This document shows positions 4,286-4,849 of a DNA stretch of 16,450 bases, piece by piece (positions within the stretch are counted from its first letter, which is position 1; each line of letters opens with the position of its first letter). A model generated the notes under the pieces. The model was not told the DNA's origin. It made no database searches and was given only the letters and a program-made list of their open reading frames with translations. The DNA is from a virus (lineage: Duplodnaviria; Heunggongvirae; Uroviricota; Caudoviricetes): IMG/VR virus record IMGVR_UViG_2537561618_000007; one strand, written 5' to 3'. Made by a program: the position numbers and the translations under genes.

Positions 4286-4849
4286 ATGACTACTCTCCCA
4301 ACCCTCTCTCAACCTGAAATTGCCATCGTTGATGGTTAGGCTGTTACTTCATCCCTGGCTGTTGCCAACTTCTTCTCTAAACGTCATGACGATGTTCTGA
4401 AAAAGATCCGCATTTTGGATTGTTCTCCAGAGTTTTGTGCCCGCAATTTTGCGGAGACATCAATTTTGGTACGCCAGCCCAACGGCGGTACTCGCAAACT
4501 TCCCTGCTACCAAATTACCCGCGGCGGCTTCGCCTTCCTTGCTATGGGCTTCACTGGTAAACGTGCCGCCCGGTTCAAAGAGGCATACATCAATGCCTTT
4601 AACCAGATGGAGAGGAGCTTATCAGGAGCTGGTGCGGCTGACATGTCATCTGTCGCACAAAACGCCAGAGGCGTATACCTGCATTTGCGTGAAATCCATC
4701 AAATCTGGACAAGCCAGCTTTACCCAATGCTTAAGGCCGTTGAATCTCCGCTGGCTGGCAAACTGTACGACCGTGTAGGTGATGCTGTTTTTGGTGCTGC
4801 ACTTGTTGATTCCAGGCTGAATGGTTCTGACAAGGAGGTGCGCCCATGA
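4286..4849 (+). pseudogene. Rha-family phage regulatory protein interrupted by an in-frame TAG at codon 18 (4337..4339)
   Basis: ATG at 4286 gives MTTLPTLSQPEIAIVDG, then TAG, then in the same frame AVTSSLAVANFFSKRHDDVLKKIRILDCSPEFCARNF...GGFAFLAMGFTGKRAARFKEAYINAF (Rha N-terminal signature) to the stop at 4847..4849. Confidence 0.6.

Follow-up and report, generated by a model that had tools for sequence, protein, structure and literature searches.

An inherited amber codon in an isrK/C4-associated Rha-family antirepressor gene probably marks a pseudogene of a decaying Shigella flexneri prophage

We analyzed a 16,450-nucleotide stretch of DNA (IMG/VR record IMGVR_UViG_2537561618_000007, hereafter the window) and found that the Rha-family gene at 4286-4849 is very probably a plain, inherited nonsense pseudogene of an isrK/C4-controlled antirepressor of the Rha/AnrP type, lying in a decaying Shigella flexneri prophage. 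In this reading, which rests on sequence comparison, the gene would be the E. coli/Shigella counterpart of anrP of Gifsy-1, carried by a defective lambdoid prophage remnant. A C-to-T change at position 4337 would have arisen in an ancestor from which a large lineage of S. flexneri inherited it, so that translation from ATG 4286 would end after 17 residues and translation from an upstream in-frame start, ATG 4148, after 63. The product was presumably once an AnrP-like antirepressor, judging by its 58% identity to a Salmonella protein, and its loss would represent neutral decay in an already crippled prophage. A first-pass annotation of the window had offered three possibilities for this gene, namely a nonsense pseudogene, expression by amber suppression, and restart at an internal TTG; our results favor the first over the other two. 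What the present analysis adds is the identity and spread of the allele, its RNA context, a second in-frame start and two accompanying changes.

Direct reading of the window gives ATG at 4286-4288, followed by MTTLPTLSQPEIAIVDG and then by TAG at 4337-4339, past which the 187-codon frame is open to the TGA at 4847-4849 with no further stop or frameshift (Table 1). The first-pass annotation had reported an in-frame amber at codon 18 of a Rha gene and TTG 4415 as the next in-frame start past the stop; both hold, and its coordinates are accurate to the base. If codon 18 is taken as Gln, the resulting product of 187 aa matches the Pfam family Phage_pRha (PF09669) over residues 21-110 with 91 bits (gathering cutoff, 29.9 bits). 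The window lacks an uninterrupted frame able to make this domain, the TAG being 5' of it; as it reads, 4286-4849 is a pseudogene of the Rha family and not a functional member. Ribosomes stopping at 4339 might also deprive the 77-aa ORF that begins at the Rha stop of its translational coupling to Rha, or subject it to polarity.

Table 1 Features of the antirepressor module and related elements in the window
Feature	Position	Strand	Remarks
Putative isrK promoter	4008..4036	+	TTGATT, 17 nt spacer, TACACT; read by eye
isrK-type sRNA gene	4043..4119	+	Rfam RF01394, 58.1 bits (gathering score 50)
C4-type antisense RNA	4144..4231	+	Rfam RF01695, 74.8 bits (gathering score 45); fold z-score -4.06
orf45-type ATG inside the 5' end of C4	4148..4150	+	Shares the Rha frame from 46 codons upstream, without an intervening stop
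Leader with C4 target sites	4236..4277	+	a2 4236-4242 (TTGGCGT); b2 4266-4274 (TCAACATAG)
Rha/AnrP-type antirepressor gene, probably inactivated	4286..4849	+	Ancestral product 187 aa
Amber codon TAG (codon 18)	4337..4339	+	CAG-derived, C-to-T at 4337
GGC (Gly80) in place of GAC (Asp)	4523..4525	+	Asp in 76/76 intact IMG/VR homologues
77-aa ORF	4846..5079	+	ATG overlaps the Rha stop (ATGA); called as a gene in E. coli and S. flexneri
60-codon N-terminus of a second, unrelated Rha-like gene	12090..12272	+	Cut off by an IS3-family element

Homologous loci reveal the ancestral codon. Among 78 IMG/VR loci, codon 18 reads CAG in 56, CGC or CGT (Arg) in 20 and TAG in a single one, a near-identical Shigella contig, and the 53 other distinct homologous sequences in the alignment all carry C at position 4337. 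Codon 18 is likewise CAG in four E. coli homologues, and the Salmonella homologue has Lys at this residue. The alignment thus bears out the earlier proposal of a C-to-T change in a CAG glutamine codon.

The amber allele is widespread within S. flexneri. The window corresponds to contig AFHC01000021.1 of S. flexneri 4343-70 (GCA_000213475.2), the two being identical across the stretch compared. TAG was present in 7/7 S. flexneri loci fetched from separate assemblies, with 4286-4849 the same as in the window in every case, and four of these loci are on complete chromosomes (CP026765.1, CP026871.1, LR213452.1 and CP026772.1). By exact protein look-up, the ORF fragments flanking the stop occur on at least 1000 S. 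flexneri contigs (for the 127-aa fragment, at least 1000 contigs in 1222 index blocks). An exact-match scan of IMG/VR for the TAG allele returned one contig, which has 4 differences from the window among 7261 other positions, and the corresponding scan of GTDB species representatives and JGI metagenome contigs returned no match; none is expected among the GTDB representatives, because Shigella probably has no one-genome-per-species entry of its own there. The window being a contig of a draft assembly, T at 4337 might in principle be a sequencing or assembly error. However, the same base stands in the four complete chromosomes and in further assemblies, as well as in the IMG/VR contig with its 4 other differences, and the flanking fragments recur on the many contigs noted above. 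Because independent assemblies share the TAG, a sequencing error is excluded and the allele is inherited; the probability that we assign to an artefact is vanishingly small.

Other S. flexneri carry the intact allele (Q18, D80) within the same prophage setting, where it is called as proteins of 322, 338, 374 and 400 aa; the 374-aa call (P0045) is present on 596 contigs. Four such intact-allele loci (L094-L097) match the window at 99.73% over positions 2171-8105. Since CAG is kept in the same remnant of other S. flexneri, the mutation postdates acquisition of the prophage and originated inside S. flexneri. The comparison of this prophage among related strains, which the first-pass annotation had called for, thus separates a TAG lineage from a CAG lineage within S. 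flexneri.

Upstream of the gene lies a compact arrangement of regulatory RNAs. Homology with E. coli modules starts at 4005, and the Rfam match to isrK at 4043. The putative isrK promoter was not called by a consensus promoter scan, as only 8/12 of its positions matched, below the threshold. The isrK gene has an intrinsic terminator (stem 4097-4114 plus a T-run), and C4 target sites recur in it as decoys, a1 at 4068-4074 (TTGGCGT) and b1 at 4083-4091 (TCAATATAG). C4 itself carries a recognition loop, b' (4185-4196), and a single-stranded segment, a' (4201-4209). The loop of its hairpin 2 can pair without mismatch with 8-10 nt located -20 to -10 from ATG 4286, and a second segment pairs at -50; the b2 site abuts the Shine-Dalgarno sequence AGGGG (4273-4277) of this ATG. 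Across C4/isrK variants in the window (4043-4285) and in loci L006-L085 (at 1240-1500), five a-types and six b-types are combined in various ways, yet they are always complementary within a locus and covary. Copies of the target sites within isrK are present in most variants; in the window type, the b copy in isrK is off by one base. The matched a/b types look like heteroimmunity classes. Our literature search for STnc1160 or a C4 antisense RNA at this locus yielded only the 2016 Gifsy-1 paper, which contains no description of STnc1160 pairing to the anrP ribosome-binding site (PMC4825925).

We next asked where translation starts. Nucleotide diversity at codon positions 1/2/3 is 0.155/0.065/0.212 in codons 1-20, which is a coding pattern, and 0.113/0.081/0.291 in the Rha domain. 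Upstream, this codon-position signature is missing, with values of 0.19/0.26/0.20 in isrK, 0.23/0.19/0.26 in C4 and 0.28/0.36/0.32 in the leader. In addition, a 181-aa Salmonella protein annotated as "putative antirepressor" (P0017) aligns with the window product Met1 to Met1 and over its full length, at the identity given above. Based on the substitution pattern, the Met1 alignment and the C4 pairing at its ribosome-binding site, we consider ATG 4286 the genuine start. The first 17 codons, for which the first-pass annotation had raised the prospect of non-coding sequence, carry the coding pattern and are covered by the Met1-to-Met1 alignment. Another candidate start, the out-of-frame ATG 4332, was rejected, as it opens only a short unrelated ORF.

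The orf45-type ATG provides a second in-frame start. It is located 138 or 141 nt upstream of the Rha ATG, in frame and with no intervening stop, in 42/42 upstream variants. More generally, the Rha frame contains zero stops across 260 nt upstream in 40/40 variants, compared with several in most other frames, and the lengths of indels in C4 and the leader are multiples of 3 nt, except in five variants, where a 1-nt indel is paired with a 2-nt one. By these sequence features, orf45 is fused in frame to the antirepressor in the E. coli/Shigella variants examined, and ATG 4148 could yield a longer isoform of 233 aa, of which the amber is codon 64. As the TAG precedes the Rha domain in the frames from both ATG 4148 and ATG 4286, no Rha domain is made from either. 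A long/short isoform pair from 4148 and 4286, should it exist in intact loci, recalls Ant1/Ant2 of P1 and would replace the AUGA-coupled orf45 of Gifsy-1.

Database annotations extend the gene still further upstream. PGAP calls on intact homologues are 286-322 aa long, with starts near 3881-3989, and the frame ending at the TAG matches Pfam Phage_ASH (PF10554) with 47.5 bits (cutoff 26) in the translation of about 4031-4315. It could therefore be argued that the real gene encodes a long two-domain "Ash-Rha" protein, with its stop at about codon 117-152 rather than 18. In line with this view, essentially every locus keeps the Rha frame open over at least 103 upstream codons, with zero stops in the 40 variants, and three such ORFs in an E. 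coli locus (L001) overlap head to tail via ATGA. Nevertheless, the stretch in question is that of the isrK sRNA, with its own terminator, and of the C4 RNA, so that the segment matched by Phage_ASH is occupied by two Rfam RNA genes. We detected no protein-level selection on this segment, third codon positions showing no excess in any of its three parts (isrK, C4 and leader), whereas the codon-position signature is clear from ATG 4286 onward. Furthermore, the long frame overlaps the opposite-strand HigB-like gene in the window, and Gifsy-1 translates just the 45-codon orf45, whose amino-acid sequence is not conserved (PMC4825925). We thus rejected the long PGAP-style protein as a functional product, given the RNA genes and the missing coding signature, and we regard a long gene of this kind as unlikely; the TAG would be a null mutation in that case too. 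The "Ash family protein" names, including that of a 152-aa S. flexneri CDS ending at the amber, may largely describe translated RNA genes.

The E. coli locus mentioned above (L001 3578-5750; E. coli O121, NZ_CP119441.1) carries three tandem modules (ash, ash and Rha) with ORFs overlapping by ATGA. An isrK-like repeat marks the 5' end of each module, all three contain a Rha domain, be it weak or strong, and the array presumably consists of tandem antirepressor modules of differing specificity.

The closest described system is isrK-orf45-anrP of Gifsy-1 in Salmonella Typhimurium, which has the same order of parts as the window (Hershko-Shalev et al. 2016, PMC4825925). There, the isrK sRNA ends in a terminator, the orf45 ATG lies inside the approximately 80-nt processed STnc1160, with the first orf45 AUG at nt 107 of the transcript, and IsrK activates translation of orf45 and, through orf45, of AnrP (PMC4825925). 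The window likewise has isrK with a Rho-independent terminator immediately upstream; its C4, scored as such by Rfam, is the counterpart of STnc1160/orf45', and the 181 aa of the Salmonella homologue is the length implied for AnrP (SL2578) in PMC4825925. The two systems also differ. In Gifsy-1, orf45 is separate and its stop overlaps the anrP start (AUGA), whereas the window and all 42 variants have an in-frame fusion, as noted for S. dysenteriae (PMC4825925). Moreover, unlike in Gifsy-1, the antirepressor of the window has the amber at codon 18, the D80G change and a weakened C4 hairpin, and the AntQ gene is absent upstream, a HigB/HigA-like pair being present.

Compared with rha of phages phi80/P22 (PF09669), the repaired window product matches the full-length domain, but the domain in the window is untranslatable, as the stop precedes it. 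Among prophage pseudogenes of Shigella, which arise by nonsense mutations or IS insertions, the window presents no substantive difference: it too holds a clonally fixed nonsense point mutation amid IS3-family insertions and truncated phage genes.

In the immI region of P1/P7 (c4-icd-ant) and in P4 immunity (seqA-CI-seqC), the antisense RNA is processed from the transcript of its own target. The module in the window resembles these in having two recognition segments, with sites on both sides of the RNA gene (a comparison drawn in part from the discussion in PMC4825925), a downstream site pair that covers the antirepressor ribosome-binding site, and specificity types that covary. Unlike P1 immI, the window has no separate icd-like leader gene but only the in-frame orf45-type start, and unlike both P1 and P4, it places the module in a lambdoid early-right operon, between nin-type/TA and replication genes.

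We then considered whether the gene could be rescued despite its stop. Expression by amber suppression, as the first-pass annotation had proposed, finds no counterpart in the window: the anticodons of its four tRNAs (Met-CAT, Arg-TCT, Thr-TGT and Gly-TCC) rule out a phage-borne suppressor, and the stop is confined to one lineage. Nor is the stop conserved among homologues, as programmed readthrough would have it, since TAG occurs in 1/54 distinct sequences. Natural UAG readthrough in E. coli mostly inserts Gln, which here would restore the original residue. Low-level readthrough by a near-cognate tRNA-Gln or a host suppressor might then leave the gene leakily expressed, with the stop attenuating a potentially toxic protein. 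The remaining frame, with no further stop or frameshift, is identical in the seven amber-lineage genomes, and AnrP-type expression is harmful in Salmonella via AntQ, which makes attenuation plausible (PMC4825925). However, recent clonal descent would by itself leave the frame identical across these genomes, the module sits in a defective prophage, and the same allele carries Gly80 at a position that is otherwise Asp, as well as a broken C4 pair. Together with the restriction of the stop to a single S. flexneri lineage and the tRNA content of the window, this leads us to view leaky expression as very unlikely.

Restart past the stop fares no better. In-frame start codons do exist there (TTG 4415, TTG 4466, ATG 4544 and later), and databases list "Rha family" CDSs of 144, 127 and 150 aa, so an N-terminally shortened active protein starting at one of the first three could be envisaged. 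Yet none of the in-frame starts past the TAG has a Shine-Dalgarno sequence at a usable distance, and each candidate, including the TTG 4415 singled out in the first-pass annotation, cuts into the Rha domain, removing at least 23 residues of the Pfam match. In addition, 0/78 loci start there, codons 1-20 are under purifying selection, and the differing annotated starts are gene-caller choices rather than evidence. We therefore hold a functional restart to be highly improbable, and a plain nonsense pseudogene remains our preferred explanation.

The amber lineage has further distinguishing changes. Among 54 distinct sequences, it shows exactly three private states within 3986-4849, at positions 4166, 4337 and 4524. 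The A-to-G change at 4524 produces D80G, at a residue where the Salmonella protein has Asn; it accompanies the TAG in 7/7 S. flexneri amber loci, and D80 is found in every intact S. flexneri allele examined. Position 4166 is A in the amber lineage, compared with G or C in 53/53 other distinct sequences. This A opens the closing pair of C4 hairpin 1, and the fold energy of C4 is -41.6 kcal/mol in the window versus -46.0 kcal/mol in an E. coli copy with G at 4166. Relaxed selection on a dead module would be expected to leave private changes at constrained sites, and all three fall at such sites. Since D80G and the C4 change could predate the stop, however, this is not strict proof of later relaxed selection; no intermediate alleles (TAG with D80, or CAG with G80) that would order the mutations were found among the cluster members examined.

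The amber allele is now the majority allele in sequenced S. flexneri, and it might have been positively selected rather than having drifted. If so, knocking out the antirepressor would have removed a trigger of prophage cross-induction or an AntQ-type growth arrest, thereby stabilizing the lineage. In a weaker variant of this idea, the UAG, read as Gln, would attenuate a toxic regulator about a thousand-fold. We judge positive selection to be quite unlikely, and neutral loss of the antirepressor remains the favored course of events.

The prophage surrounding the module is itself decayed. Near 1000-2165, a DUF1133 gene is broken by an IS3-family element, with additional copies of this family at 12102-13104, 13371-14579 and 14856-15647. 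One IS3-family copy contains an ALIL frameshifting pseudoknot (14183-14298, minus strand; 111 bits), and a 263-aa transposase ORF is present in two identical copies of opposite orientation; the ends of the contig probably lie in repeats. The first-pass annotation had described the Rha-like gene at 12090 as truncated by an insertion sequence, and this is confirmed: in tblastn, the 60 aa of this ORF align at 77% identity with the N-terminus of the Rha-family regulator from Erwinia phage Midgardsormr38, and the ORF ends where the minus-strand IS3-family transposase ORFs of 12102-13104 begin. This ORF had no match in Pfam or NCBIfam, and its megablast similarity stops at the first bases.

A cI/cro region does not adjoin the module, but the HigB/HigA-like pair does. 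On the minus strand at 3340-3936, a HigB-like toxin gene (Pfam Gp49) and an HTH_3 antitoxin-like gene stand back to back with the isrK module, and the long plus-strand frame called "Rha domain protein" or "ash" overlaps the toxin gene. The tRNA cluster (9373-9683) follows the Q antiterminator gene, an arrangement shared with Stx-type lambdoid phages, and its Met-CAT tRNA (so called by ARAGORN and annotated as Ile in an E. coli homologue) is probably a lysidine tRNA of the ileX/ileZ type.

The lineage with the intact allele (L094-L097; S. flexneri LR861788.1 and related, 11342-14685) has lesions of its own. Its initiator gene is split into 121 and 76 aa, versus 302 aa, an IS cuts its dnaB short at the point corresponding to ~8105 in the window, and Q, tRNA and lysis genes are absent past the dnaB break. 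The two S. flexneri lineages have thus decayed independently, with different genes of the same remnant inactivated, and a viable phage appears to be present here in neither.

These results bear mainly on annotation. The original annotation splits the gene into EGJ90438.1 (235 aa, ending at the TAG) and EGJ90439.1 (127 aa, from TTG 4466), and the S. flexneri halves are deposited as separate proteins, an "ash family protein" and a "Rha family transcriptional regulator". The appropriate record would instead be a single pseudogene containing an internal stop, with the isrK and C4 RNA genes ahead of it. Beyond this correction, which is its main value, the finding documents one more lesion in a cryptic prophage; it is an ordinary case and opens no new question. 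The natural pair of CAG and TAG alleles within one species could nonetheless be used to test the role of an AnrP-type antirepressor in Shigella.
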